Source of the DNA: a virus
Taxonomy: Duplodnaviria > Caudoviricetes
DNA: 64,000 nucleotides
Direction: 5' to 3' (one strand)
Virus record (IMG/VR): IMGVR_UViG_3300009095_000011
Location: 50,227-114,226 of that record
This document shows positions 1-13,539 of the stretch, one piece after another. The stretch's first letter is position 1, and every line of letters starts with the position of its first letter. The translations under genes were made by a program, and so were the position numbers. The notes under the pieces were generated by a model that saw only the letters and a list, made by a program, of their open reading frames with translations, had not been told where the DNA came from and did no database searches.

Positions 1-1410
1 AAATTCAGGTATATCTCCATGTTGCCAATTGAGAGAAGCATAAATAGCTGAACGCCTTGAGCCACCTTGCATTACTTCTCTACCAATTTCATTAATAATC
101 CTCATTGCACTGACTGCACCAGAAGCTACACCACCAGTTTTTGACAATTTACTGCCACGTGGCCTATAAACACTATAATCAATCCCTATTCCTCCACCTG
201 TCATAAGACAAGATTGTGCTCTCCAAGATAAATTAGCCCATTCTTCACGTGTATCGCTTTCAGCTTTTAACAAGAAACAATTAAATGTATCAATATTATT
301 TTCAAGTATAAATCTATTATACACAGGTTCATAAGGACAATAAACATCCTCTTTTCCTAATGATCTGATAGAATCAACCTTAAACCCCTCCCACCTTTCG
401 CCATAATTATAATTAATAGTATAAATTCTAGAATGTTTTTTATATGCCGTCTCTCTATCCTGAAATCTTTTTTCTCCACTTATAACTAATCCAGCACATA
501 TAGCATTATCTATAAAATAATCTATATGAGATTCTGTTACAGAATTTATTTTTTTTCCTACTTTCTCGCAAGCATCTGCTTTAATCCACCCTAATATAAA
601 TCCACTTATATAGTCAGTAGTTTCATTTTTACTTGGTAACTCTTTAAAATTTATATCATTCCAAATTCTAATAACAGCATCTCCATTATAAGTTTTTGGA
701 AACTTGATATTATATTCAATATTAAGTTCTTTTAAATAATCTTCTACTTTATTTAAATAAGACATATTCTTTTCTCCACATAAACGAATCTTATGTGTAT
801 ATTTTTGATCTTTGTTTCTTATTCTTTCAAGATTTCCATCGCCAAATATTAAACCATGAATCCATCCCCTTTTACTAAAATTAGAAAATTTTCCAGCAGG
901 AACTACATCACCGATTCGCAAATCATAAGTATCTTTACCATTTATTAAAGGCCAATGATGAGTTCTTGTAGATTTTATTTTATAAGATATGTTGGAATTG
1001 CCCCTAATTGGTTTAAATATAATTTCTTGCACATCTTGTTTCCCATGATAAATTATCTCAGAAGGATAATATTTACCATCAATAGGAGATTTTAACATTA
1101 AAGTTTTTCCTACATTAGATTTTAAATCTTTTAATCCAAAATCAGTTAAGACCTTAGTTTCTCCCGCAAAGCAATTGTTAAAAAATTTATTTTCTCTACC
1201 AGCATAATATAAATATCTACCTCCCGCAATTGCTTGCATATCAGTATGAATTTGAATTAATTGTCGTATTTCATCTTTAGTAAGCAAATCTCCACAAACA
1301 TCATTTATTAGTGTTTTACTTAATTTATCCCACGTTTCACAATCTTTGTGTGCATATTTGTGATTAAAAATGTCTTCGGAGAATTTACTTCTGAAATATT
1401 TCTGACTCAT
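1..1410 (-). CDS. Ribonucleotide reductase large subunit (probably class II/NrdJ-like), intein-containing; 3' end runs off the window
   Basis: Manual translation from ATG at 1410 (MSQKYFRSKFSEDIF...AGGRYLYYAG...FFNN|intein|CFLLKAESDTREEW...GGGIGIDYS..RPRG...GGVASG...QGGSRRSA) shows RNR barrel motifs. Not in the supplied ORF track because it lacks a stop in the window. Confidence 0.9.
   Translation of the reverse strand, partial: MSQKYFRSKFSEDIFNHKYAHKDCETWDKLSKTLINDVCGDLLTKDEIRQLIQIHTDMQAIAGGRYLYYAGRENKFFNNCFAGETKVLTDFGLKDLKSNVGKTLMLKSPIDGKYYPSEIIYHGKQDVQEIIFKPIRGNSNISYKIKSTRTHHWPLINGKDTYDLRIGDVVPAGKFSNFSKRGWIHGLIFGDGNLERIRNKDQKYTHKIRLCGEKNMSYLNKVEDYLKELNIEYNIKFPKTYNGDAVIRIWNDINFKELPSKNETTDYISGFILGWIKADACEKVGKKINSVTESHIDYFIDNAICAGLVISGEKRFQDRETAYKKHSRIYTINYNYGERWEGFKVDSIRSLGKEDVYCPYEPVYNRFILENNIDTFNCFLLKAESDTREEWANLSWRAQSCLMTGGGIGIDYSVYRPRGSKLSKTGGVASGAVSAMRIINEIGREVMQGGSRRSAIYASLNWQHGDIPEF
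280..1173 (-). mobile_element. Intein (298 aa) with LAGLIDADG homing endonuclease in the RNR gene
   Basis: Begins CFAGETKV (block A), has STRTHHW (block B TxxH), LAGLIDADG-like WIHGLIFGDG and FILGWIKADA, and ends ...EDVYC...IDTFN followed by +1 Cys. Removal restores FFNNCFLL. Confidence 0.9.
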
Positions 1411-1456
1411 GAAAATTATTAGTTTATGATTGAATAATAAGTAAACGATTTATAAA

Positions 1457-1493
1457 ACAAAAGGGCTTCAAATTTACACAAATCAAGCCCCTT
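1457..1493 (-). terminator. Probable hairpin/terminator between the Ibr cluster and RNR
   Basis: Minus strand GGGCTTGA-loop-TGAAGCCC followed by TTTTGTTTT (imperfect stem). Confidence 0.45.
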
Positions 1494-1536
1494 CTGGAAA
1501 TTATCAATGAAATAAAATTAAATTAAAATTGACGAA

Positions 1537-1662
1537 TTATTTGGTTTTTACATCTTTGCGATAACCACATACTTTACAAATAATAATTGATTTATTACTA
1601 TCTAATATGTGTGGAGTTTCAGTCTTGCATTTGTTGCAGTATTGATAGTGGCGTGGGGTCAT
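1537..1662 (-). CDS. Small Zn-ribbon protein (41 aa)
   Basis: MTPRHYQYCNKCKTETPH...IICKVCGY: two CxxC motifs; starts immediately after the stop of the upstream ORF. Confidence 0.6.
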   Translation of the reverse strand: MTPRHYQYCNKCKTETPHILDSNKSIIICKVCGYRKDVKTK

Positions 1663-2313
1663 TTAAGTTATATTATCATCAGTTGCTTCCCATGTCATTG
1701 AAAATTCTTTATCCTTAAACATCTCTAATAAACTTGATATTTGAGATAATCTTAACACTTCATCTGCATCCATGCCTAATTCTTTAGATATTTTATTAGT
1801 AGTCCAATTTCTTCTTTTTAAATCCATTACTATTTTTGACATAAGATCAACATTATGTTTTCCACGTGCTCTATTATGTCTAATGGTTGAGGCTATCCTA
1901 TCATTAATTCCTTCACGGTTTTTATTAATAGTTACAACGGGTAAATATCCCCTTATTCTGTTTCTTATATTGGAAGATTCTTTACCTATTTTATTACGAT
2001 GAAATCCATCTATAACCTCCCTGTTACCATTTTCTTCAAGCATTGAAACAATAGGCTGAGTATAACCATCACATTCAATAGAGTGTTCTAAAAGTTTAAA
2101 TTCAGGTATTGCAACATTATTGGGATTATAACTATTGGCATGAATTTTATCACCCTTAATCCACAATACACAATCCACAGGTTCATTTTCAAATGGAGAA
2201 ATGGAATGCAGAAAAGACTTAATATTATTGAGTTGATTTACTTTTTCTTCAAATTCTAATTTCTCTAAATTTTCCCAAAGTTCAAAAAGTAATGATTCAA
2301 TTTTTTCTTGCAT
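1663..2313 (-). CDS. ibrB: IbrB-like ParB/Srx-domain protein
   Basis: EPVDCVLW, ANSYNPN, DGYTQPIV, VIDGFHR, DRIASTIRHNRARGKH, and an HTH-like ISKELGMDADEVLRL. Confidence 0.85.
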   Translation of the reverse strand: MQEKIESLLFELWENLEKLEFEEKVNQLNNIKSFLHSISPFENEPVDCVLWIKGDKIHANSYNPNNVAIPEFKLLEHSIECDGYTQPIVSMLEENGNREVIDGFHRNKIGKESSNIRNRIRGYLPVVTINKNREGINDRIASTIRHNRARGKHNVDLMSKIVMDLKRRNWTTNKISKELGMDADEVLRLSQISSLLEMFKDKEFSMTWEATDDNIT

Positions 2314-2881
2314 TTTTATTATATATAAATTTATATCCGTAAACTTGTTTTAATTTTCCATTGCAAACCAAACTAATATTGCCCTTATCGGCATTTTTAT
2401 ATTTAGTATTTTCTTTAATAAAAAATTCTGCTTCTTTAAGTGTTTCCCTTTGACAAATAAAATTATTATCTATATCGAAAATATCTACATATCCACGCCA
2501 ACAACTATTTTTATTTCCAACTCTTAATTTAGCTTTGTTACTTAATTTATTCCTTGTGTTATCATTAGATAATCCAATTTCCCATGCATGCTGAACATTT
2601 TCACTATTATTAACCCATTCTAAATTATCAATATGGTTGTTTTTTTTATTTCCATCTTTATGATTTACTATAGGTTTATTTTCTGGATTTGGAATAAAAG
2701 CTAAAGCAACGAGGCGATGGATATATAAATCTTTAAATGTAGTACAATAACCATTTTTAATTTGGTATTTTAAAATCCTAATTCCTTTATTAAAGCTCTT
2801 AATTCTACCTAAATTAGAAACCTGATATTTTTCATATCCAGGAATGTCTTTCCATATTTCATTGCTCATTTTTAAGTCCAT
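2297..2881 (-). CDS. NUMOD4-HNH homing endonuclease
   Basis: EIWKDIPGYEKYQVSNLGRIKS (NUMOD4); HRLVALAF..VNHKDGNKKNNHIDNLEW (HNH); C-terminal NUMOD1-like segment. Confidence 0.9.
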   Translation of the reverse strand: MDLKMSNEIWKDIPGYEKYQVSNLGRIKSFNKGIRILKYQIKNGYCTTFKDLYIHRLVALAFIPNPENKPIVNHKDGNKKNNHIDNLEWVNNSENVQHAWEIGLSNDNTRNKLSNKAKLRVGNKNSCWRGYVDIFDIDNNFICQRETLKEAEFFIKENTKYKNADKGNISLVCNGKLKQVYGYKFIYNKNARKN

Positions 2882-3437
2882 AAGAATCTTTATCTATAGT
2901 CCAACTATTCATATATTGATGTTTTCTGAATGTATGAGCAATTCCAAGCTGTTGTTTGAGACGAATATATTCTTCTGTTTCCATACCGAGATTGCCTATG
3001 ATTTCTTCATCCTCAAGTCCAAGATCATGTAACTTAACAACTAATTCACTCATTAATTCAACTTGATGCATACCTTTAATTCTATTCATAAGGACAGTTA
3101 ATTGTACTGCATCTTCATGAGTCAACTGTAAATCAACTATGCAAGCTTTTTTTGACCCTATTCTTTTAAGAGTTTCAAATCTATGATAACCATCAATGAT
3201 TCTATACATAGGCCTACCAACCTCTTCGCTTTTAGCTTTATTGTAAGTTGCAATTATAGGAAACAAGAAACCATATTTTTGAATACAATCTGCTAACAAG
3301 CTCATTTCAGTATCTGGCATTCGATTTGGATTGTAATCATTGGCAAATAATTGATCAATATTAACTTCAATTGCCTCAGTGGCTTTCATTTTTATTTCTT
3401 TCATATTATAGAGTTTTGTATTTACTGATTCTTTCAT
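2859..3437 (-). CDS. Second ParB/Srx-like (IbrB-like) protein; true start probably at the downstream MKATEA
   Basis: ANDYNPN, YGFLFPI, IIDGYHR, MNRIKGMH, LGMETEEYIRL. Confidence 0.8.
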   Translation of the reverse strand: MKESVNTKLYNMKEIKMKATEAIEVNIDQLFANDYNPNRMPDTEMSLLADCIQKYGFLFPIIATYNKAKSEEVGRPMYRIIDGYHRFETLKRIGSKKACIVDLQLTHEDAVQLTVLMNRIKGMHQVELMSELVVKLHDLGLEDEEIIGNLGMETEEYIRLKQQLGIAHTFRKHQYMNSWTIDKDSYGLKNEQ

Positions 3438-4377
3438 GAATGATATCTATATTTTCCTTTTCTTTTTCAATTAAAATATATGGTCTATTGATTTCCTCAC
3501 AAGCAATACCAGTTGTTCCACTCCCTGCGTAAGGATCTAAAACTATCCCACCCTGTGGCATTTTAGTTAAGGTACAAAGATACTTAATTAAAGCCAAAGG
3601 CTTAACAGTATCATGAGTATTGTTTAATCCTTTTTCTTCTTTCGTAGGTTTAGCACAATAGAAGAAATTAGAAGCTCCAAATTTTTGATTTTCTAATTCA
3701 TCTTTAATCTCTTCATTAATAATAACATTAGCAGGCCAACGACCTTCTTTTGTTCTTTTAATACCAAAATGTTTCCCGTCAGTATTAATTCTTGCTCCAT
3801 CAATCCAATATCCAGAAACTCCCCAATTTAAAGCATTATCATCATAATTGCCCTCAATTGGTTTTCTACATACAAGAATAGGTTCAAATGAAGGCTTTAA
3901 TGCAGTTCCCCAACCATTCCATTCCTCAGCTTCATTTGAATTAGGCTTATTTATTTTGATAACTTTTTGTTCATTATGTTTGCCACCCATTGGATTTTTA
4001 TTTACTATTAATTCTTGCTGTATATCTCCAAGTCTATTTCGATTCTTATCAATGACATAAGCAATATCAACACTTTTGGGGAAACCACTACCATAAAGCC
4101 ACATAATTGTATCCATTATATGAAATCCTGCTTCCTCTATGTTTACAGCAAGTCTATGAAACGTTCTACTGCCACCAAAACAAAGCATCGTTCCTCCTGG
4201 CTTTAATACCCTAAACATTTTTTGAAAAGCTTCTATTGATGGGATTGAATAATCCCATTTATTACCTTTAAATTTTAAACCATAAGGTGGGTCAGTAATA
4301 ATAGTAGTGATAAAATTATCTTCCATTTTATCAAGTACATTTTCACAACTATCGTGTATTATATTATTTGCATCCAT
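3406..4377 (-). CDS. DNA N6-adenine/N4-cytosine methyltransferase (beta class)
   Basis: TDPPY (motif IV), HDTVKP, VLDPYAGSGTT (motif I). Confidence 0.9.
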   Translation of the reverse strand: MDANNIIHDSCENVLDKMEDNFITTIITDPPYGLKFKGNKWDYSIPSIEAFQKMFRVLKPGGTMLCFGGSRTFHRLAVNIEEAGFHIMDTIMWLYGSGFPKSVDIAYVIDKNRNRLGDIQQELIVNKNPMGGKHNEQKVIKINKPNSNEAEEWNGWGTALKPSFEPILVCRKPIEGNYDDNALNWGVSGYWIDGARINTDGKHFGIKRTKEGRWPANVIINEEIKDELENQKFGASNFFYCAKPTKEEKGLNNTHDTVKPLALIKYLCTLTKMPQGGIVLDPYAGSGTTGIACEEINRPYILIEKEKENIDIIHERISKYKTL

Positions 4378-5435
4378 TTTTCTCTCAATTTCTCTAATTG
4401 TTCATCTCTTTTGGTGTTAAAAGCTTTACTATTCTCATAGTCATTTATTAATAACTGCCCTACTTGAGCTTGATAAACCTCTTCTTTTTTTGGTTGTTTG
4501 CTAAATCTTGCCTTAAATTTCTCTCTATGTTGATTTTCTGGAATATTTTCTAATAAGAAATCTCTATACTCCTCCCAACTCTTATAATGAGTTGGGAGTA
4601 TTTTATTAGAAAAAATAAGTTTCTCAGTTCCATATCTCATAGCGGTTGAAATACCGCCTATTCGCTTACAAAGCTTATCGTATGTTTCGGGTTCATATTT
4701 GGGTAAAGTAATTAATGATTTCCATGCTTTCTCATGAATAAGATTAGAAACCCTCATTTTATTATAAATAGAAACATTATCCATAAATTGAAGATCATAT
4801 ATTTTATTATATGGTATATTATAATCATAAATATATTTCCATACATCATATACAGTCCAGTCGTAAATCGGATAAAATTTCTTTATTCCATTTTGTACAG
4901 TACTCCATCTGATATTTTCCCAACCAACATATTTAGTAACTGCCCTAAACCTTATTACACCTTCTTCTGCCCTTATCCCAACAAGATAAATAGCATCTTT
5001 ATCTTTCCCCTCAAGGTAAGGGAATATTTCATAAAATCTTCTTGGATATTCTTCATCTATTGAATGTATTGAATTAGGTTCTTTATCTCTCATCCATTGC
5101 TCACCCTCCCCCCATGCATAAAGAAAATAATCCGAATAACTTGTGGCATTAGTCATATAAACAGGAACCTGATACCATAAGGGAATTACATTAGGGTGCT
5201 TCATTTGTTCCCTTATAATTTCTATTGATGCTGCATATTCTGCCTCCTGATCAAGGAAAAAAACATGTATTTTTCGATTTCTTTTGATTGCTTCTTGAAG
5301 TGCTAAATGATAAAGTACTGTACTATCTTTACCACTTGATATTGATACATGAATAGTTTCAAAAGTATCGAAAAGAAAAGACATCCTTTCTCTTGCAGCT
5401 TCAAGAACATTTTTATCTGGATTATATATTTTCAT
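4359..5435 (-). CDS. PAPS-reductase-like/DUF3440 (IbrA-like) protein, paralog 2
   Basis: PP-loop SISSGKDS, FLDQEAEY, LVGIRAEE, YPIYDW, MRVSNLIHE. Confidence 0.85.
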   Translation of the reverse strand: MKIYNPDKNVLEAARERMSFLFDTFETIHVSISSGKDSTVLYHLALQEAIKRNRKIHVFFLDQEAEYAASIEIIREQMKHPNVIPLWYQVPVYMTNATSYSDYFLYAWGEGEQWMRDKEPNSIHSIDEEYPRRFYEIFPYLEGKDKDAIYLVGIRAEEGVIRFRAVTKYVGWENIRWSTVQNGIKKFYPIYDWTVYDVWKYIYDYNIPYNKIYDLQFMDNVSIYNKMRVSNLIHEKAWKSLITLPKYEPETYDKLCKRIGGISTAMRYGTEKLIFSNKILPTHYKSWEEYRDFLLENIPENQHREKFKARFSKQPKKEEVYQAQVGQLLINDYENSKAFNTKRDEQLEKLREKWMQII

Positions 5436-6195
5436 TCTTTGTAACTTGAATAATTTTATTAAATGTATTTAGCCTTCTTATATTTTCTTCATGAAGAAAT
5501 TTATAAACTCCCAATTCTGGCAATAAGTAAACTTCATTTTCTTTATAAGAATCTATTGAATAATTAATACCAAACTTATTATTACACATCTTTAATAAAT
5601 TATTAATCCAAAGCTTAGGGGAAGTATATTTATTAAAAACAAATTCTTTAGCTTCATCATACCATTGCAAATCAACATCATTAAGATCATAAAAATCTGC
5701 CTTGTATGAAAGCATATCTATATCGGAATATGTATCTGTAATACAAAATCCAATATTGTCAGAATCTAAACGACAATTATTTTTGTCCCTAAGAAACCAA
5801 TGTTTCCATTCTGTTTCAATAGTATAACTATAAGGAATAGCAAATTTACCAGTGCCACAAAGTCCATAATGAAACCAAAAACGCCAAGGTTCCCCAATAA
5901 ATGGTAAATGATCTATGCTCATTTTAGGAATATCCCTTGTTATAGTAAAAAGATGCTCAAGCACAAAATCAGTTCTATTACTTGGGGTCATAATTTTATT
6001 TAGACCAAAAAATATTAACAAATTAGCATGTATATTGTGATAAATGGTTTTGTATTCTTGGAATTCTATATTGCCCCTTATTCCTGGTATATCTGGTATA
6101 TCATATCCTTCTTTGTAAATTACCCATGTATCTTCTGGTAATTCCGGTAATTTTACAGTTTTTAAATCTTTAAGAAATTGTATTTTAGGAATCAT
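5422..6195 (-). CDS. Hypothetical protein in the Ibr operon
   Basis: 257-aa ORF overlapping both neighbours; no motif confidently recognised. Confidence 0.6.
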   Translation of the reverse strand: MIPKIQFLKDLKTVKLPELPEDTWVIYKEGYDIPDIPGIRGNIEFQEYKTIYHNIHANLLIFFGLNKIMTPSNRTDFVLEHLFTITRDIPKMSIDHLPFIGEPWRFWFHYGLCGTGKFAIPYSYTIETEWKHWFLRDKNNCRLDSDNIGFCITDTYSDIDMLSYKADFYDLNDVDLQWYDEAKEFVFNKYTSPKLWINNLLKMCNNKFGINYSIDSYKENEVYLLPELGVYKFLHEENIRRLNTFNKIIQVTKNENI

Positions 6196-6748
6196 AACCC
6201 ATATATTTTTTAGCTATGTAATATACACACTTTTTATTTAAATCAGAACATATAAAATTTTTAAATTTAGAAGCCACATTGCCATATCCACAATTAAAAT
6301 CCAATACTGTATTAAATTTTTCAGAAAGCTTATCTATTGCTTCCCAATTATCTTTAAATTCAACCTTATCATGATTCCATATAGCCAACAAAGAAGAGTA
6401 TCCGTGTAATTGTATTTCAGTAATATAATCTGGATTTAATTTATTAATGGCATGTTTGCCTGTAATGATAAAAGTGGGTTTTTTTAATTCATTTATTATT
6501 CTCTGAATAGAGAACAAATATAAATTAAAATCATCATTTTTACAATCCGTACGATCAATAAAAGTTTTATATCCACTTCTCCATGCTGGCTCAGAATAAA
6601 TCACATCAGCTTCATAAAACAATGGCAAAACGCCATCTATTAAATTATGAGCTATGACATGAGAATTATTATATTTATAATAATCTAATTCTTTTAAATT
6701 TTGAATTTCATCCGTAAGTGCAGAATGATAATTTTTAGATACTTTCAT
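6185..6748 (-). CDS. Compact SAM-dependent methyltransferase-like protein
   Basis: DVIYSEPAW (DPPW-like motif IV) precedes VLDFNCGYG...CSDLN (motif I/II). Confidence 0.6.
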   Translation of the reverse strand: MKVSKNYHSALTDEIQNLKELDYYKYNNSHVIAHNLIDGVLPLFYEADVIYSEPAWRSGYKTFIDRTDCKNDDFNLYLFSIQRIINELKKPTFIITGKHAINKLNPDYITEIQLHGYSSLLAIWNHDKVEFKDNWEAIDKLSEKFNTVLDFNCGYGNVASKFKNFICSDLNKKCVYYIAKKYMGYDS

Positions 6749-7928
6749 GGTTTTTGTTTTTTCTCATTTTTAATACTAATCCATACATTTCAGTTTTAGG
6801 TTGTGATTTACCCAATCCCTTCATGTAATAATCATTTTTTAAAATACATTTAGTAATTAATCTCCAACTTGGAACCTTACCAGTTTTTTCAAGACAGCCT
6901 GGAACTTCATCCGGTATTCCTTTTGGATACCCTCTATCTTTCCATAATTTAACATAAGAATCAATTATATTATTGTAATGATTTTTGGTTTTATCAGGAA
7001 TTGAATTTAATAATAAATTGGAAATTTCCCGCCATGTTGTATTTTTAGGCTTTTGTATATTATTATAATTATTTTCCTTTATATATAAAGCTCCGCTATT
7101 AACTCCACTAACTCTATTTACAACCTTTGACCAAGTTTCCGGTTCTACAATATGAAATAACCATAATCCTATTTTTTGCTCATCACCATAGGGCTGACAT
7201 ATTCTTTGATGCCTTAATGGAACACCTGCCTTATGCATTAATTCATACAATTCATTATATTTCTTTTCTGGATTATTACAATGATAAATCCAAATATCTT
7301 CTGTTTCCCAATCATAAATCGGATAAACATTAAATAAATTTTCTGAAATTTGAGTAGTAAATAAGTTTGAATCTAATGTTTTTTTATTGAGATTATAAAT
7401 AGCCCTAAACCTATTTAAACTCTCATTTGTTCTAATTCCAACTAAACAGGCAGTTTTTTTATTATCAGAATACCATTTCCCAAATTCAAACATAAATTCT
7501 TCAAACTCCATTCCTTTATTGAAAAAGGAAAAATAATTTTCATCACTTATAGATTTTTCTGGCAAATCCCTAACCCAATCATTTTTTCGATCTTTATCCC
7601 AACATATCCATGAAGGTTCATATACACTAACGGCATTTCTTAATTTTAATGGAAGAGCAATCCAATATAAATCTATATAATCTCTGTATTCTTCAATACA
7701 ATTTTTTAAATGATCTATAGTTAATTTATATTGAGCTTCTAAATCTATTACTAATACACCTATTTTTTTATTTCTTCTTTTTGCTTCATCCATAGCGAGA
7801 TGAAGCATTACTGTTGAATCTTTGCCAGCACTAAAACATAAATAAATTTTATCAAATGAATCAAAAGTCCATTTTATTCTTTGCTTCGCAGCTTCATAAA
7901 CATTAATATCTAATCTATATTTAGGCAT
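6735..7928 (-). CDS. ibrA: IbrA-like PAPS-reductase/DUF3440 protein, paralog 1
   Basis: FSAGKDS, IDLEAQY, LVGIRTNESLNR, YPIYDWETEDIW, QRICQPYG, PSWRLITKCILKND. Confidence 0.88.
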   Translation of the reverse strand: MPKYRLDINVYEAAKQRIKWTFDSFDKIYLCFSAGKDSTVMLHLAMDEAKRRNKKIGVLVIDLEAQYKLTIDHLKNCIEEYRDYIDLYWIALPLKLRNAVSVYEPSWICWDKDRKNDWVRDLPEKSISDENYFSFFNKGMEFEEFMFEFGKWYSDNKKTACLVGIRTNESLNRFRAIYNLNKKTLDSNLFTTQISENLFNVYPIYDWETEDIWIYHCNNPEKKYNELYELMHKAGVPLRHQRICQPYGDEQKIGLWLFHIVEPETWSKVVNRVSGVNSGALYIKENNYNNIQKPKNTTWREISNLLLNSIPDKTKNHYNNIIDSYVKLWKDRGYPKGIPDEVPGCLEKTGKVPSWRLITKCILKNDYYMKGLGKSQPKTEMYGLVLKMRKNKNHESI

Positions 7929-8299
7929 ATTAAATCTTTATTATGCAATTCCCATTTATAAATTAATTCTTGTGCTATTTTATCAGATCTGTCTTGGACT
8001 TCTTTAGAAAGTAAATTCCAAGCTTCCATTGTTATTACATGAGGTATTTTTTGATAAGCCGCACATGCTGCCTGACCCAACCACGCTATTCTATTAAGAC
8101 TTGTATTTGATAAATTATGCTCACAAGAATATTTCCAGTTCTCAACAACAAAAGACATCATTTCTTTTGTTAAATGTTCGTTATTGAACATTTTAATTGA
8201 ATACTGTATTTTTTGTTCTTTTTTTATTCCAGAACAATTGCCATAAAAATTATTATGAAAATCTTCCCAAAGATGGTAGGGGTGCCAAATTCTTTTCAT
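7910..8299 (-). CDS. Hypothetical protein upstream of ibrA
   Basis: MKRIWHPYHLWED...CEHNL...NRIAWLGQAAC; coupled to dut and ibrA. Confidence 0.65.
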   Translation of the reverse strand: MKRIWHPYHLWEDFHNNFYGNCSGIKKEQKIQYSIKMFNNEHLTKEMMSFVVENWKYSCEHNLSNTSLNRIAWLGQAACAAYQKIPHVITMEAWNLLSKEVQDRSDKIAQELIYKWELHNKDLICLNID

Positions 8300-8721
8300 T
8301 ATTTACCAGTTGATCCAAATCCATTTTCTCCACGTTCTGATTCATTAAGCTCTTTTACCTCAATAAATTCAATAACATTAACATTTTCAACATGAATTTG
8401 ACCTATACGATCGCCTACTTTATAATTTGGCAAAGATGGGATTATATTATAGAAATGAAATAAATATTCTCCTGTATATCCATAATCTCCCGTTGCTGTT
8501 GAATTAGATAAAATAAGTCCTGTTTTATAAATTGATGATCGAGGTCTTAAATCTAATCTTGTTCCCTCTGGTATCTCAAAAGACAATCCTATTCCATATC
8601 TTATAATTCCATTGCCCAAATCATCCATTGAAGTAGCATATACATCAAAACATGCATCTGTTGGATATTTTTGATAAGGTTCTTTGGCTAATGGGTGTAG
8701 CTTTTTAAATTTTACTTTCAT
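8299..8721 (-). CDS. dut: Trimeric dUTPase
   Basis: DACFDV, PRSS, GDYGYTGE, DRIGQ, RGENGFGSTG. Confidence 0.93.
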   Translation of the reverse strand: MKVKFKKLHPLAKEPYQKYPTDACFDVYATSMDDLGNGIIRYGIGLSFEIPEGTRLDLRPRSSIYKTGLILSNSTATGDYGYTGEYLFHFYNIIPSLPNYKVGDRIGQIHVENVNVIEFIEVKELNESERGENGFGSTGK

Positions 8722-8725
8722 GGGT

Positions 8726-11700
8726 TTAAATGATTTCTACTTTAGTATTCTCATTGGAATGAAGAACGTTACATTTCTTCCATCCATCATGTTTGATAAT
8801 TCCTTTTATAAAGATAATGCTTTTTTCTGCATTTTTCAAGACTTTTTTATACTTTTCATATTCTTCATTCCATAATGTAAAATGAATCATTTCACTATTT
8901 ACATTGATATCTATCTGGACAAATTTGCCACGTTTGGATTTTCTTTCAATGATCTTTTCAATTACTCCACTAACTACTATTTCCTGCCCTATGCTTTCCT
9001 CCTGATTAAATCTTAAAAGATCTATGAGGGAATTTGATTCACTTGCAAAAGAAGATGACTGAATGAGTTCTTTATAGTTAATATACCCCAATCCTGTCAA
9101 TTCAAGACTTTTCAATATCCACCAATGATTTTTCCAAATATTATTGAAATCATTAAATTCTTCTGGTAAATCTTCTTTTATAATTTCCTCATAATATTCC
9201 CTCAATATCTTAATTCTGTCAGATTCTTGTTTGACATTATAAAGCTCATCAAAAGCACCTGCAAGAATGAGATTAGTAATTGCTCGTTTATTTACTGTTC
9301 GCTTATCTACGCGATCAAATAAGTCTTTTACAGAGAAGAAATTACCTTTATTGTTTCTTTCTTCTATGATCTTCTCAACTGCTTTTTCACCTACCCATTT
9401 AACAGAAACAAGTGACCAATATATTTTTTTCTTGTCAAAGTCTGGTTTAAAATATTCTCCCGAATGATTGATATCTGGCTGAGATACCATTACCTCTCCC
9501 AATCGATTCATTTCGGCTATAATTTGAGGCTTAGTGGAATCATCAGCATATTGCAGGGCTACATTATAGAATGCCACAGGGTAATGAGCCTTTAGGTACA
9601 TTGTGGTATATCCTAAAATCGTATAACAAGCAGCATGGGAGTAATTGAATGAATACTGACCAAAGCTTTCAAACATATTCCATATATGTTCAGCTTCTTC
9701 TTTCGGGCAACCATTTTTTATTGCACCTTCAATAAATTGTGGCTTGTATGAATTTAAAAGTTCCTGATCTTTCTTACCTATACCCTTACGAATCATATCG
9801 GAATCAGCAAGGGAAAATCCCGCAAGATCAACGCAAGCCCTCATCACTTGCTCCTGGTATGCTAAAATTCCATAAGTTTCTTTTGTGATTTCCTCAAGTC
9901 CCCAAAGATATTCAGGTAATCTTTCACCATTTTTTATTTTTATATAATCAATATGTGACCCCGTACCCATTGCGCCTGGACGATAAAGAGCATTGGCGGC
10001 AATAAGATCATTTAACTTATCAGGCCTCATATCCATAAGAAAACCAGTCATGCCACCGCCACTGAATTGAAACACATCAGCAGTGTACCCATCATTAAAC
10101 ATCCAGAATACTTTCTTATCATCAAGTGGAATATTTTGAAAATTATATTCCTTACCATATTTTTCTTTAACTATTTTAAATATATCTCCAACTTTATCAA
10201 GTTGAGAAAGTCCAAGTATATCTTCTTTCAGAAATCCAAGTTTATCTAATACAGTCCCACTATATTCACTTACTATAATTCCATCCTCTTTTCTTACAGG
10301 TATCCAATCCCATACTTCAATTTCATTACCCTCTTCATCTACATGTGGGAAAATTATAATAGCAGAAGCATGAATTGATTTATTACGAATTACATTGTTA
10401 ACTAATGGAAGATCATTTACAACTTCAATATTTTCTTTTATGAACTTTTTAAGAACTGTAACCTCCTGTGAATATTTAAACAATTCAGTAATATTTTGTG
10501 GTTCATCGGCAACTTTCTTTGGGAATGTTCCTGTAATATAATTGATAGTCTGAAAATCAGTACCATTTTCTTTAGCAAGTTCCTTTAATGCACTTTTTAT
10601 TTTTAATAATCCCCATGTGCCAACATAAGCAGTATGATTGTATCCATATTTCTGAACTATATATTGTTTAATTTTTTCTCGTCCCTCACTGGAAAAATCT
10701 ATATCCACATCAGGCAATCCCTTAGTTACCCTTGCACTATTAAGAAACCTATCAAAAGGTAAGTTATATTCAAGTGGATCAATCATTGTAACATTCATCA
10801 AGTAAAGACAAAGAGATGATGCAGCAGAACCACGACCTAAATTTCTCATTATGCCTCTCTTATCTGCCTCTCTACAAATATCATAGGTAATAAGAAAGTA
10901 TTCTCTATATCCTCCTAAATCAATTACACTTGTTTCATATTCAATGCGGTCTAAATATTTTTGATCATTCTCCTTGCCTATTCTTATCAATCCTTTCATG
11001 ATAAGATTGTCGAACATATTATTTGTAGTTCCATATTGTTCTTTCTCTTCATCTGTCATAATATACTTAGGCAGATGAAGTTTTCCGGTTTCTATTTCAA
11101 ACTTGCACTTATCAGCTATTTTAACGCTGTTCTCAGCACTTTGAGCGAATATGTCATATAATCTATCATCTTCACCTTTAAATAGCTTAGAGAGGCTAAA
11201 AAACAGTTCATCAATGCTCTTGAAATGTTGGTCGTCGCTTGCGTAGCTAAATGGTACTTTGCCGATCTTTGCAAGTTTTGGTTTTATATGAGCATGAGAT
11301 TTATCAAGATAGTAACTGTCACTCATTAATACAGGAGGACAGATAGGATAAAGTTCATGAAGATATTGTTTAAGGTTTAGCAAGTGCTCTTTATCTCGCT
11401 CATTGGATTTATATTCAACTGGATCGAATTGAAAATATATGTCTTTGAATTGTTTACTAAATTTGTAGAATACTGCTTTATTAAAATAATTTATGCTATC
11501 GGGAGGAATCACAAGGATGAGACCAGATGATCTTTCGAGTAGTTCTTTTTCAACAATAAATCCATCATTATCTACTTTAATTGCTTTATTGATCCTTAAA
11601 AGGTTTTGCCATCCTGTTTTATTCTTTACATATAGTTTTACAAGGTAAGTTGCTTTGCTCTGTACTGTGGCTGTCATTCCTAATGAATAACCTATTTGTG

Positions 11701-11869
11701 CTTTCTTGCAAGCTTCCTGGAATGATAATGTTCCTCCTAATGTATTATGATCACATATTCCAAGATGATCTATTCCTAAGAATTTAGCTTTCTTTATGTA
11801 ATCTTTATGTTCTCTTGTTCCTGAACATATTTCGTATTTAGAATGAATAGCAAGGTGAGAGTAGTTCAT
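8726..11869 (-). CDS. dnaE: DNA polymerase III alpha subunit (PHP + Pol + OB)
   Basis: HLAIHS/CDHNTL PHP motifs, GRGSAASSL, PDVDID, KEDILGL, LYRPG, YQEQVM, YSFNYSHA, C-terminal OB fold. Confidence 0.95.
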   Translation of the reverse strand: MNYSHLAIHSKYEICSGTREHKDYIKKAKFLGIDHLGICDHNTLGGTLSFQEACKKAQIGYSLGMTATVQSKATYLVKLYVKNKTGWQNLLRINKAIKVDNDGFIVEKELLERSSGLILVIPPDSINYFNKAVFYKFSKQFKDIYFQFDPVEYKSNERDKEHLLNLKQYLHELYPICPPVLMSDSYYLDKSHAHIKPKLAKIGKVPFSYASDDQHFKSIDELFFSLSKLFKGEDDRLYDIFAQSAENSVKIADKCKFEIETGKLHLPKYIMTDEEKEQYGTTNNMFDNLIMKGLIRIGKENDQKYLDRIEYETSVIDLGGYREYFLITYDICREADKRGIMRNLGRGSAASSLCLYLMNVTMIDPLEYNLPFDRFLNSARVTKGLPDVDIDFSSEGREKIKQYIVQKYGYNHTAYVGTWGLLKIKSALKELAKENGTDFQTINYITGTFPKKVADEPQNITELFKYSQEVTVLKKFIKENIEVVNDLPLVNNVIRNKSIHASAIIIFPHVDEEGNEIEVWDWIPVRKEDGIIVSEYSGTVLDKLGFLKEDILGLSQLDKVGDIFKIVKEKYGKEYNFQNIPLDDKKVFWMFNDGYTADVFQFSGGGMTGFLMDMRPDKLNDLIAANALYRPGAMGTGSHIDYIKIKNGERLPEYLWGLEEITKETYGILAYQEQVMRACVDLAGFSLADSDMIRKGIGKKDQELLNSYKPQFIEGAIKNGCPKEEAEHIWNMFESFGQYSFNYSHAACYTILGYTTMYLKAHYPVAFYNVALQYADDSTKPQIIAEMNRLGEVMVSQPDINHSGEYFKPDFDKKKIYWSLVSVKWVGEKAVEKIIEERNNKGNFFSVKDLFDRVDKRTVNKRAITNLILAGAFDELYNVKQESDRIKILREYYEEIIKEDLPEEFNDFNNIWKNHWWILKSLELTGLGYINYKELIQSSSFASESNSLIDLLRFNQEESIGQEIVVSGVIEKIIERKSKRGKFVQIDINVNSEMIHFTLWNEEYEKYKKVLKNAEKSIIFIKGIIKHDGWKKCNVLHSNENTKVEII

Positions 11870-12327
11870 GAATTTATCTTTTCAATAAAAATTATATCAG
11901 AAGTGTTAATTTCTTTATTATTCAAATTAACAATATTGGGAAATAAGCTACTAACTATTTTAATAGATCCACCCTCACCATCAATCCAACTTGAACTTAA
12001 TTGTTTTAAAATTCCACTCTTTGCCTCAATCGTATTATGAATTGTCTTATAATGATAGATATATTCGTTAGTAAAGCAATCAAATGGAAGGTGATTCAAA
12101 GCTTTTAGTCGAGATAATTTTTTAGGATGAATTTTGCTATTTATTCTTCCTAATCCAGTATGCAATTCTTTATTAATAATATAGTCTGAATTAATAAGAT
12201 TTTTAGGATAAGTAATGGTATTTTTTATAAAATATTCATTATACCATACATTTACTTCCAATTTGCCATTTAATAAACGTATGGCAGACCAACCTATTGG
12301 TAATTTTTTAAACATTTCTCTCATCAC
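11866..12327 (-). CDS. Hypothetical basic protein between the putative DnaE N-terminal ORF and dnaE
   Basis: Frame 11866..12402; likely start GTG/ATG at about 12327, overlapping the upstream TGA (GTGA); its stop overlaps the dnaE ATG (ATGA). Confidence 0.5.
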   Translation of the reverse strand: MMREMFKKLPIGWSAIRLLNGKLEVNVWYNEYFIKNTITYPKNLINSDYIINKELHTGLGRINSKIHPKKLSRLKALNHLPFDCFTNEYIYHYKTIHNTIEAKSGILKQLSSSWIDGEGGSIKIVSSLFPNIVNLNNKEINTSDIIFIEKINS

Positions 12328-12695
12328 AATTGACTTTTGGCCTTTCCTAAATATTTTAATGGGTTTAATTGAGGTTCTTGATCTTTGTTGTAGAAGTACC
12401 AATTGCCTCCGAATTTAAAAGCAAAGAACTGAACTATATCAGCTAATGTTTGCTCCATGTCATCTAAGATAAGATGAAATGATTGGTCGAATAGATGGGA
12501 TTGTATTTCTTGTTCAATTTGAACTTGCTTTGGTTCAATTATAAGGAAATAACCTACATCTTTGATTTCAAATATTTTGTCAGGAAATTCTTCTACAAAG
12601 GAATAGTTGAGAGAATTTTCCTCAAGCCAGTCTACGATTTTCATGGGTTGCAATTTAAAATGGCAAATCGAAAATAAAATCTTCATCTTGCTCAA
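12324..12695 (-). CDS. Hypothetical; resembles the N-terminal extension of Bacteroidota phage/prophage DnaE
   Basis: MKIVDWLEENSLNY...FAFKFGGNWYF...LNPLKYLGK; similarity recalled from memory, unverified. Confidence 0.45.
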   Translation of the reverse strand: MSKMKILFSICHFKLQPMKIVDWLEENSLNYSFVEEFPDKIFEIKDVGYFLIIEPKQVQIEQEIQSHLFDQSFHLILDDMEQTLADIVQFFAFKFGGNWYFYNKDQEPQLNPLKYLGKAKSQL

Positions 12696-12966
12696 TGGAG
12701 TTGGTATCGTTGATTTTGTTTTCTAATTCTTTGAAAGCTTTATCTAAATTTCTACTTTTAAACCAATTAAGGCCGTCAACATAAAGAGAATATTCTATAT
12801 AATATTCAGATCCTGTTTCTTTTGAATGTACTATTTTTTCTACTCGAAATGAATAATACCTTCCATTTGCCAATTTAGACAATCTTTTGTCTATTTCAGT
12901 GAAAGTATTAGTGATATTGGATATTCTCAATAACCAATAAGCAAATTTTTTAATTAATCTTTTCAT
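12655..12966 (-). CDS. Hypothetical protein
   Basis: 103-aa ORF with acidic DLPF-type C-terminus. Confidence 0.55.
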   Translation of the reverse strand: MKRLIKKFAYWLLRISNITNTFTEIDKRLSKLANGRYYSFRVEKIVHSKETGSEYYIEYSLYVDGLNWFKSRNLDKAFKELENKINDTNSIEQDEDFIFDLPF

Positions 12967-12990
12967 GGGTTTTACAATTTTTATTTAAAG

Positions 12991-13539
12991 TTATAAAATT
13001 CTTGCAATATGATCAAGAGAAACTTTTCTACATTTCTCTTCGCCTTTGGCTTTTATTACTGCTATATTATTTTTTCTATCAACATTTACAAGAACTCCCA
13101 CAATGGCACTATCATCTTCCTGCTTGATTCTTATGTCAGTATCTTTCATAAAGTAATTATAAAAATCCTGAGATGCAAATGATTCCCTATGTTGCTCATC
13201 TTTATAATGAAAATCAGGAAAGCCCCATCCATCTCTATATATCTTAGATGCAACCCTTTGTTTTTCCTTACTATCAATAAAGATATTAGGTAATGCAGGA
13301 TTTCGACTACATATGTCTTGAATCTTATTTTTCTTATGAAACATTACCCTTTCTTTGTAATATTTCTTATCGTTGACATTAGGGTATATCTTAGATCTCA
13401 ATTCAGCAGATATATATTCAATTTGCAAAATCTCTAAAAATTCTAAGATTGGTAAGTCTCTGGTTTTTTCTACTTTATTTTCGCTGGACATTAAAAATGA
13501 AACAATTCGTTTCCATACTACAGTTATATTCTTTGCCAT
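12991..13539 (-). CDS. Hypothetical protein
   Basis: 182-aa ORF in the replication cluster. Confidence 0.6.
   Translation of the reverse strand: MAKNITVVWKRIVSFLMSSENKVEKTRDLPILEFLEILQIEYISAELRSKIYPNVNDKKYYKERVMFHKKNKIQDICSRNPALPNIFIDSKEKQRVASKIYRDGWGFPDFHYKDEQHRESFASQDFYNYFMKDTDIRIKQEDDSAIVGVLVNVDRKNNIAVIKAKGEEKCRKVSLDHIARIL

Follow-up and report, generated by a model that had tools for sequence, protein, structure and literature searches.

The pairing of IbrA with IbrB is known from the ECOR-9 island of Escherichia coli, and the same core, an enzyme with PAPS_reduct and DUF3440 domains encoded beside a protein with a ParB fold and a helix-turn-helix (HTH), is found in YbdN/YbdM of strain K-12 and in phage pairs (PHROG 2302 and 2159), for instance those of Escherichia phage PhiR5_2 and Streptococcus phage CHPC1148. 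In the Flavobacterium phages FCV-1 and FCL-2 the core forms part of a trio, SNF2-ParB-IbrA. Dnd (DndB/DndC) and BREX type 4 (BrxP) are DNA-acting systems that also combine a PP-loop enzyme of the PAPS-reductase family with a protein of the ParB superfamily. The ParB-fold protein DndB accompanies DndC, and in the Dpd system (DpdA/DpdB) of 7-deazaguanine modification the ParB-like ATPase DpdB drives base insertion, a ParB-like NTPase likewise aiding a base-modifying enzyme on DNA (PMC12839542). Here we describe a phage gene cluster with two IbrA/IbrB cores. It lies in a 64-kb stretch of DNA, hereafter the window, which is the last 64 kb of the 114,226-bp IMG/VR viral record IMGVR_UViG_3300009095_000011 (rated complete by CheckV). 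Whereas the E. coli phage pair stands alone, the window has two cores of different deep clades in one operon, and in comparison with known IbrA/IbrB pairs it adds two dedicated proteins, orf129 and orf257, a shared methylase-like protein without a target-recognition domain, orf187, and a canonical methylase, MTase323. We tentatively propose, giving the idea somewhat less than an even chance, that the locus encodes a composite machine for modifying nucleic acid, most probably DNA, in which two diverged IbrA/IbrB modules share one methyltransferase-like protein. New here are the fusion of two modules of different clades around one shared orf187, the tie of each third partner to its own IbrA clade, the IbrB::orf129 fusions and an intein in the PP-loop.

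The two enzymes, IbrA1 (positions 6735-7928) and IbrA2 (4359-5435), are encoded on the minus strand, as is every gene between positions 1 and 11869. In both, a PAPS_reduct domain (PF01507; E 4.4e-14 and 2.7e-16, respectively) is followed by DUF3440 (PF11922; E 1.1e-28 and 6.2e-10), which is shortened in IbrA2. Both proteins exceed the Pfam cut-offs for the two domains and match phrog_2302 (E 7.5e-89 and 2.2e-93). The PP-loop is intact, reading SAGKDS in IbrA1 and SSGKDS in IbrA2, and SxGKDS is invariant in 19 aligned homologs from both clades. Their partners, ParB1 (2859-3437), a short protein, and IbrB2 (1663-2313), combine a ParB/Srx fold with a C-terminal HTH that is kept in both types, and match phrog_2159 (E 3.7e-38 and 4.7e-69). 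The motifs DGYHR, in the ParB1 alignment, and DGFHR, in the IbrB2 alignment, are invariant, and IbrB2 also has RHNRARGKH. Both pairs hence show the features that define IbrA/IbrB: PAPS_reduct and then DUF3440, an intact SxGxDS, and a partner with a DGxHR ParB/Srx fold and an HTH. A ParB CTPase or partition protein was considered and rejected, as ParB1 falls just under the ParB_N cut-off (E 3.7e-5; 24.1 bits versus 26.3), IbrB2 is without a Pfam match, no ParA is present, and both proteins are assigned to the IbrB PHROG rather than to partition ParB. An earlier note on this DNA, made from the letters and their open reading frames (ORFs), had named two IbrA and two ParB-fold proteins, an N6/N4-methyltransferase and an HNH protein, all of which Pfam and PHROGs bear out.

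The same note had taken the two pairs for different subfamilies rather than a recent duplicate, and this view holds: IbrA1 and IbrA2 are 33% identical, ParB1 and IbrB2 29%, and the two enzymes fall into separate deep clades. In a quick maximum-likelihood IQ-TREE of 72 IbrA proteins from the gathered loci, supported by the Shimodaira-Hasegawa-like approximate likelihood ratio test (SH-aLRT) only, a group adjoining orf129 (17 rows, SH-aLRT 100) holds IbrA1, a group adjoining orf257 (core of 19 rows, SH-aLRT 99) holds IbrA2, and a third group has orf187 only (30 rows, SH-aLRT 96). The loci in the tree were collected through accessory genes and are thus a biased sample; the split between orf129 and orf257 among loci fetched via orf187 is not a product of how the loci were collected. 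The sequences indicate that the IbrA1 and IbrA2 modules are anciently diverged. IbrA1 is 53% identical to its closest named relative, in Microcystis phage Mwe-JY13, and 42% identical to PhiR5_2 IbrA; the IbrA of the FCV-1/FCL-2 trio, which follows ParB and a gene of the SNF2 kind, is closer to IbrA2 (40%). The motifs quoted in the earlier note (QRICQP and KCILKND in IbrA1, RVSNLIHE and LLIND in IbrA2) are present, and IbrA2 lacks both the Cys motifs of IbrA1 and its insert of about 45 residues. These Cys motifs, RICQPYGD(D/E)Q and a C-terminal CK..LLRNDYWCK, are limited to the close IbrA1 sub-clade and absent from Mycobacterium phage Gaia (L004), from locus L017 and from every IbrA2; among the motifs compared only LxND is universal.

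Window proteins were compared by tblastn and blastp with all fetched loci, about 90 phage loci, which are cited here by L numbers. The genes of module A encode a ParB protein of the IbrB2 type (51-60% identity), orf129 and an enzyme of the IbrA1 type. This module is found alone in L013, L014, L015, L017, Mwe-JY13 (L019) and Gaia, and together with orf187 in L025, L073, L078, L080, L084 and L085. In module B, orf257 is joined by an enzyme of the IbrA2 type (61-76%) and a protein of the ParB1 type (54-76%); L006, L008 and L090-L099 have this module by itself, and orf187 precedes it in L024, L032, L053, L061 and L066. ParB1-type proteins occur only beside genes of the IbrA2 core clade. Hence, the working pairs are IbrA1 with IbrB2 and IbrA2 with ParB1, though the partners lie far apart in the window.

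Both modules occur together in five lineages, namely the window, L009, L010-12, L033/34 and, partially, L007. L009 has the gene order of the window without the HNH gene, at 51-76% identity. The order is IbrB2::orf129, orf187, orf257, MTase, IbrA2, ParB1, IbrA1 in L010-12, and orf187, orf257, IbrA2, ParB1, IbrB2, orf129, IbrA1 in L033/34, where MTase323 is absent. The window, L009, L010-12 and L033/34 each have one orf187 only. In the window and L009 it lies at the junction of the modules, where it completes the IbrA1-orf187 and orf187-orf257-IbrA2 arrangements known from other phages. The earlier note had named lack of conservation of the cluster in relatives among the findings that would refute its proposal; the cluster is conserved, in the same order in L009 and shuffled in L010, L033/34 and L007, and the recurrence of the full set in differing gene orders argues for function over inherited synteny.

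Other arrangements were seen among the gathered loci. In L035-L040, L047 and L068 a short ParB-like ORF (151-155 amino acids) is followed by orf187, IbrA and a second IbrB, which places two ParB-fold genes around one IbrA. In Gaia, a small ORF (8910-9125) after the orf129-like gene resembles the last 70 or so residues of IbrA1 (41%), and the Gaia IbrA keeps its own C-terminus; in L017 a comparable IbrA1 C-terminal fragment is found immediately upstream of the principal IbrA match. From these fragments it would seem that the C-terminal DUF3440 part can move as a unit. Mobile elements often turn up near the modules. A 930-residue protein encoded directly after module B in L006 (L006:10249-13041) matches DnaB_C below threshold and carries an intein that includes a LAGLIDADG domain.

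None of the three accessory proteins matched a family when the window proteins were scanned against Pfam, PHROGs, NCBIfam and PADLOC. The small module A partner orf129 (7910-8299) has 63 metagenome homologs, which share a near-invariant core, W-x-Y-S-C-E-H-N-L-S-N followed by N-R-x-A-W-L-G-Q-A. It lies between the IbrB2-type ParB gene and the IbrA1-type gene in every module-A-only locus examined, the loci examined for its position being L013, L014, L015, L017, L019, L025, L073, L078, L080 and L084, and in two further loci an IbrB2-type ParB is fused to orf129 as a single protein (L010 and L085). The L010 fusion (L010:44-1201) has an acidic linker of about 35 residues, and the L085 fusion is a 387-residue ORF that starts near 6661. 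An ESM Atlas search with orf129 gave a best feature score of 0.83 with all template-modelling (TM) scores < 0.5, the Atlas model being poor (predicted local distance difference test, pLDDT, 0.45), and thus yielded no fold for orf129. Sequence searches of the PDB with IbrA1, IbrB2 and the orf129 and orf257 profiles gave no relevant solved relative, and a complex prediction from the IbrB2 and orf129 alignments scored 0.00, which is no verdict either way.

The shared protein orf187 (6185-6748) also remained without a match to the methyltransferase (MTase) models of these libraries. Thirteen metagenome homologs were aligned; a single-sequence scan of viral sequences gave no match, and an alignment-based scan found 61 viral loci, 56 of which also have an IbrA gene. 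The motif order is permuted, with motif IV, [DE][PL][PAS]W, followed by motif I, Dx(x)CGYG, and then by SDxN. In orf187 itself motif IV is SEPAW and motif I is DFNCGYG, and the most distant homolog has SDPPW. The AlphaFold (AF2) model (pLDDT 88.6) matched M1.HpyAVI in Foldseek (E 6e-5) and M.BceJIV in VIA (Z 12.8, root-mean-square deviation 3.2 A, 153 residues aligned). Next among the VIA matches came MboIIA, N4CMT, CcrM, PvuII and RsrI, and the top 18 rows were all DNA MTases. Motifs IV and I are about 90 residues apart, all of them core strands and helices of the model, compared with about 260 in MTase323, and hence orf187 is, according to the model, a beta-class DNA methyltransferase fold without a target-recognition domain. 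The designation mini-MTase, first given from the motifs, is therefore right as a description of the fold. The MT-A70 heteromers METTL3-METTL14 and Tetrahymena MTA1c likewise contain a small permuted core without its own recognition domain and are matched by orf187 as well (Z about 9), although the bacterial beta-class DNA MTases are the better matches.

The module B partner orf257 (5422-6195) has 77 homologs in a set of 5.8 billion proteins and 90 cluster representatives in a set of 1.84 billion, all of about 250-290 residues, and in each of 14 viral loci its neighbour is a gene of the IbrA2 type. Its AF2 model (pLDDT 93.5) matched 14 SNF2 ATPases in VIA (Z 10.2-8.0), CSB, vaccinia early factor, SWR1, Chd1 and SsoRad54 (these five at Z 10.2-9.7), ZorD, INO80 and others, with 216-242 of the 257 residues aligned in 13 of them and 153 for SsoRad54, whereas generic DEAD-box domains reached a Z of only about 6. 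Foldseek likewise pointed to SNF2/SF2 helicases, in the PDB (probability 0.93) and among viral models (BFVD; E 4e-4). The Walker A (GxGKT) and DExH motifs were found in none of 32 aligned orf257 sequences. Provisionally, we regard orf257 as a predicted SNF2-core-like fold without ATPase motifs. Independent support for this likeness comes from FCV-1, in which a true SNF2 gene lies ahead of the ParB-IbrA pair, at the position of orf257. The SNF2 protein of FCV-1 is a real one, with GSGKT, in contrast to orf257, and the ParB1 of the window is of a derived type. The SNF2 domain PF00176 was not found in the phage's own genome.

The cluster is under purifying selection. A 105-kb compost contig spans window positions 1398-8998 with 57 differences and 3 gaps (99% identical); among 40 differences listed of the 57, 2 are intergenic, 24 synonymous and 14 non-synonymous, one of the latter being a stop in the HNH gene, and all frames of the cluster except HNH are open in the compost phage. 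A 789-residue IbrA2-type protein encoded at L086:3810-6179 (IMGVR_UViG_3300036774_000191) contains an intein with Intein_splicing and LAGLIDADG_3 domains, which splits the PP-loop after SGKD and before S. The usual sites of inteins are catalytic motifs in proteins that are essential. Because the intein interrupts it, the PP-loop gains indirect support as the active site of IbrA.

These observations bear on the idea that IbrA and IbrB are regulators that switch phage or host transcription without a covalent mark, with the methyltransferases as unrelated passengers. The HTH of IbrB and the public annotation "co-activator of prophage gene expression IbrA/IbrB" speak for this, and ybdNM of E. coli is described as an operon under regulation whose role is unknown (PMC9068703). 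However, the PP-loop is invariant and is hit by an intein, which speaks for catalysis, the linkage of orf187 to IbrA in 56 of 61 loci argues that orf187 is not a passenger, and SNF2-like and methylase-like proteins are not expected for a pair of regulators. An epigenetic mark could account for both the name and the enzymes, and we consider pure regulation quite unlikely.

Modification by the composite machine is favoured by the conserved linkage, the IbrB2-orf129 fusions, the invariant PP-loop and the intact frames in the 99% identical phage, and also by the pairing of a ParB fold with a PP-loop/PAPS-reductase enzyme, which follows the DndB/DndC pattern. DNA is suggested as the substrate because the partner folds act on DNA: ParB with HTH, a beta-class DNA MTase, an SNF2-like protein and a canonical DNA MTase. 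PP-loop ATP pyrophosphatases adenylate an oxygen that is then displaced. Gene content, folds, motifs, linkage, fusions and selection are observed here; from them we infer what the substrate (DNA), its chemistry, the sequence of steps and the role of the cluster might be. Each IbrB, with its ParB/Srx fold and C-terminal HTH, would bind DNA and recruit its IbrA. The PP-loop of IbrA would then adenylate an oxygen of the target base or backbone, the position being substituted afterwards. The clade-specific third proteins may adapt or deliver the reaction: orf129, with its Cys-Glu-His motif, would work on or with IbrB, and orf257 might be an ATPase-dead SNF2-like domain that grips DNA. orf187 would methylate or hold a flipped or already altered base, or serve as a non-catalytic subunit, and MTase323 would be an optional add-on that writes ordinary N6-methyladenine or N4-methylcytosine (m6A/m4C). 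The outcome would be that phage DNA is shielded from host restriction. In a bolder form of the proposal, which we find possible but doubtful, the two modules would be the two branches of a single pathway, or would work in parallel on two bases, and together with orf187 would write an undescribed DNA hypermodification, by adenylation-driven base-oxygen substitution and then methylation, with orf129 and orf257 as specificity or delivery subunits.

Several points weigh against modification of DNA. The literature on IbrA/IbrB, DUF3440 with ParB, and YbdN/YbdM yielded no published substrate or product, and public records name the proteins "co-activators of prophage gene expression". As motif IV is atypical (EPAW), orf187 may not be catalytic; the non-catalytic METTL14 has a degenerate EPPL, which this motif recalls. 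The SNF2 likeness of orf257 is one of predicted fold: in a profile search of 1.84 billion proteins the ten most distant relatives carried no SNF2 domain by Pfam, and hhalign of orf257 against IbrA-adjacent SNF2 genes gave a probability of 0.2, that is, no link. For PP-loop enzymes, DNA is a less common substrate than tRNA or small molecules, and the ParB/Srx fold includes small-molecule kinases, ParB1 itself weakly matching two of them, SerK (E 1.5e-5) and SbnI. Lastly, a position beside the dUTPase and ribonucleotide reductase (RNR) genes would fit work on nucleotides too.

The last two points lead to the possibility that the modules act before replication on (deoxy)nucleotides, with IbrA adenylating a base oxygen, IbrB acting as a kinase, and the DnaE polymerase incorporating a non-canonical deoxynucleoside triphosphate. 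As the earlier note had it, and as Pfam confirms for the flanking genes, the cluster lies between DNA polymerase/dUTPase and RNR. DnaE (8726-11869) is upstream of the cluster, the dUTPase gene dut (8299-8721) comes directly before orf129, and RNR (1-1410, the part within the window) is on the far side; in L014 and L015 as well, module A adjoins dut or RNR. Some PP-loop enzymes, such as GMP synthase, do work on nucleotides. In many other phages, however, the modules lie beside terminase, portal, integrase or recombinase genes, and the C-terminal HTH of both IbrB types and the DNA-acting folds of the partners fit poorly with free nucleotides; we regard this possibility as unlikely.

Most of the PP-loop family consists of tRNA-modifying enzymes, and a weak match of IbrA2 to the TilS N-terminal domain (E 0.004) is in line with a role in RNA modification, for example of host or phage tRNA as by TilS, TtcA, ThiI or MnmA, which would retune translation during infection. 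Against this, every partner fold (ParB, beta-class DNA MTase, SNF2) is of a type that acts on DNA, and no Rfam families were found in window positions 1-13000 and no tRNA genes in the window. An RNA substrate thus seems very unlikely to us.

The earlier note had also given the proposed modification a sulfur or phosphorothioate flavour, which is not supported. Phosphorothioation of the DNA backbone in the manner of Dnd or Ssp would be consistent with a stretch of about 70 residues that both IbrA proteins share with the DndC and BrxP models (E 6.6e-8 to 1.3e-7), and with the pairing of ParB-fold DndB with DndC (PMC12839542). However, the DndC equivalog (TIGR03183) scores 31.5 and 24.1 bits for IbrA1 and IbrA2, respectively, versus a cut-off of 290.4, and the Cys motifs, confined as they are to one sub-clade, are not conserved across the IbrA clades. 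The phage genome has no cysteine desulfurase (PF00266), for which host IscS could substitute, and the PADLOC scan of the cluster proteins found no DndD-like or DndE-like partner; a separate DndE search gave no match, with its control sequences likewise unmatched. Overall, IbrA falls far under the Dnd and BrxP family thresholds, DUF3440 replaces the C-terminal parts of DndC or BrxP, and no Dnd or BREX partners (DndA/D/E, BrxC/L/PglZ) were seen with the cluster, so that we hold phosphorothioation to be highly improbable. The cluster also differs from Dpd in that it has no homolog of tRNA-guanine transglycosylase (TGT), its catalytic partner coming from another superfamily.

A further alternative is that the genes serve as anti-defence effectors whose target is host DNA or host immune molecules and not the phage's own genome. 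This would suit a movable cassette found in many unrelated phages, and PAPS-reductase and ParB-domain proteins are also present in settings of defence, namely BREX type 4 and PANGU-like clusters. The PADLOC scan of the cluster proteins, however, matched no defence model above superfamily level, and we think such a role distinctly unlikely.

Of the remaining genes, MTase323 (3406-4377; 323 residues) is a canonical beta-class N6-adenine/N4-cytosine DNA methyltransferase (PF01555, E 1.2e-31, 110.9 bits versus a cut-off of 26.7; PADLOC MTase_II, E 8.5e-42), in which motif IV, DPPY (residues 29-32), stands ahead of motif I, DPYAGSG, near the C-terminus, with a long variable region. Orthologs lie within the cluster in L009 (69%) and L010 (50%) and not in L033/34; as three of the five two-module lineages hold one, MTase323 is an optional member of the cluster. 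A second N6_N4 DNA methyltransferase gene is found elsewhere in the phage genome (G000:C1:31816-32478, open frame of 266 amino acids). The HNH gene (2297-2881), located between ParB1 and IbrB2, encodes a homing endonuclease with NUMOD4 and HNH_3 domains (E 1.1e-15 and 2.2e-10, both above the Pfam cut-offs). In the syntenic L009 it is absent and ParB1 and IbrB2 abut, and in the 99% identical compost phage contig its codon 10 is changed from W to a stop (position 2852; runs X2 and X6). The HNH gene is a selfish insertion, outside the system. A 41-residue Zn ribbon (1537-1662) abuts IbrB2; its Pfam matches are weak and under the cut-offs, L009 has no counterpart after IbrB2, and the ORF does not share the conservation of the cluster. 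The earlier note had counted both the HNH gene and the Zn ribbon as cluster members, which is not borne out, while its ORF positions and their minus-strand orientation were confirmed in every case.

The run comprises eleven genes that overlap or abut; neighbours from dut through IbrB2 all overlap, by 1-32 nt, and a gap of 126 nt separates the Zn ribbon from RNR downstream. The barrel domain of RNR begins at residue 377 of the visible part, and the preceding 376 residues are without a Pfam match. The plus strand of the cluster holds short ORFs only, inside minus-strand genes. No convincing minus-strand terminator was found inside the gene run, and promoter-like sites were not enriched (63 found versus 71 expected) in a scan that does not model Bacteroidota promoters. 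The GC content is about 30%. The stretch is carried in a soil metagenome, its probable source, and the nearly identical copy comes from a compost metagenome of another study. A megablast of the locus against named phages gave as its sole match 45 nt of NUMOD4. The host is probably a member of the Bacteroidota, because the adjoining DnaE-type polymerase is closest to polymerases of Chryseobacterium, Cellulophaga, Tenacibaculum and Bacteroides phages (33-38% identity).

Among gene pairs of phages and prophages that still await a biochemical description, IbrA/IbrB is one of the most widespread. The locus described here provides a compact map of its accessory proteins, in which conserved linkage, natural fusions and fold connect orf129, orf187 and orf257 with particular IbrA clades. 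The locus is also a natural experiment, in which two complete modules in one operon can be removed separately. Should the cluster write a new DNA mark, this would add a further class of phage anti-restriction chemistry, and would explain why ParB-fold and PP-loop proteins are recurrently paired in Dnd and BREX type 4 and why a ParB fold stands beside base-modifying enzymes in Dpd. Should it give rise to ordinary methylation only, the role of the family would have to be sought in regulation or nucleotide metabolism.

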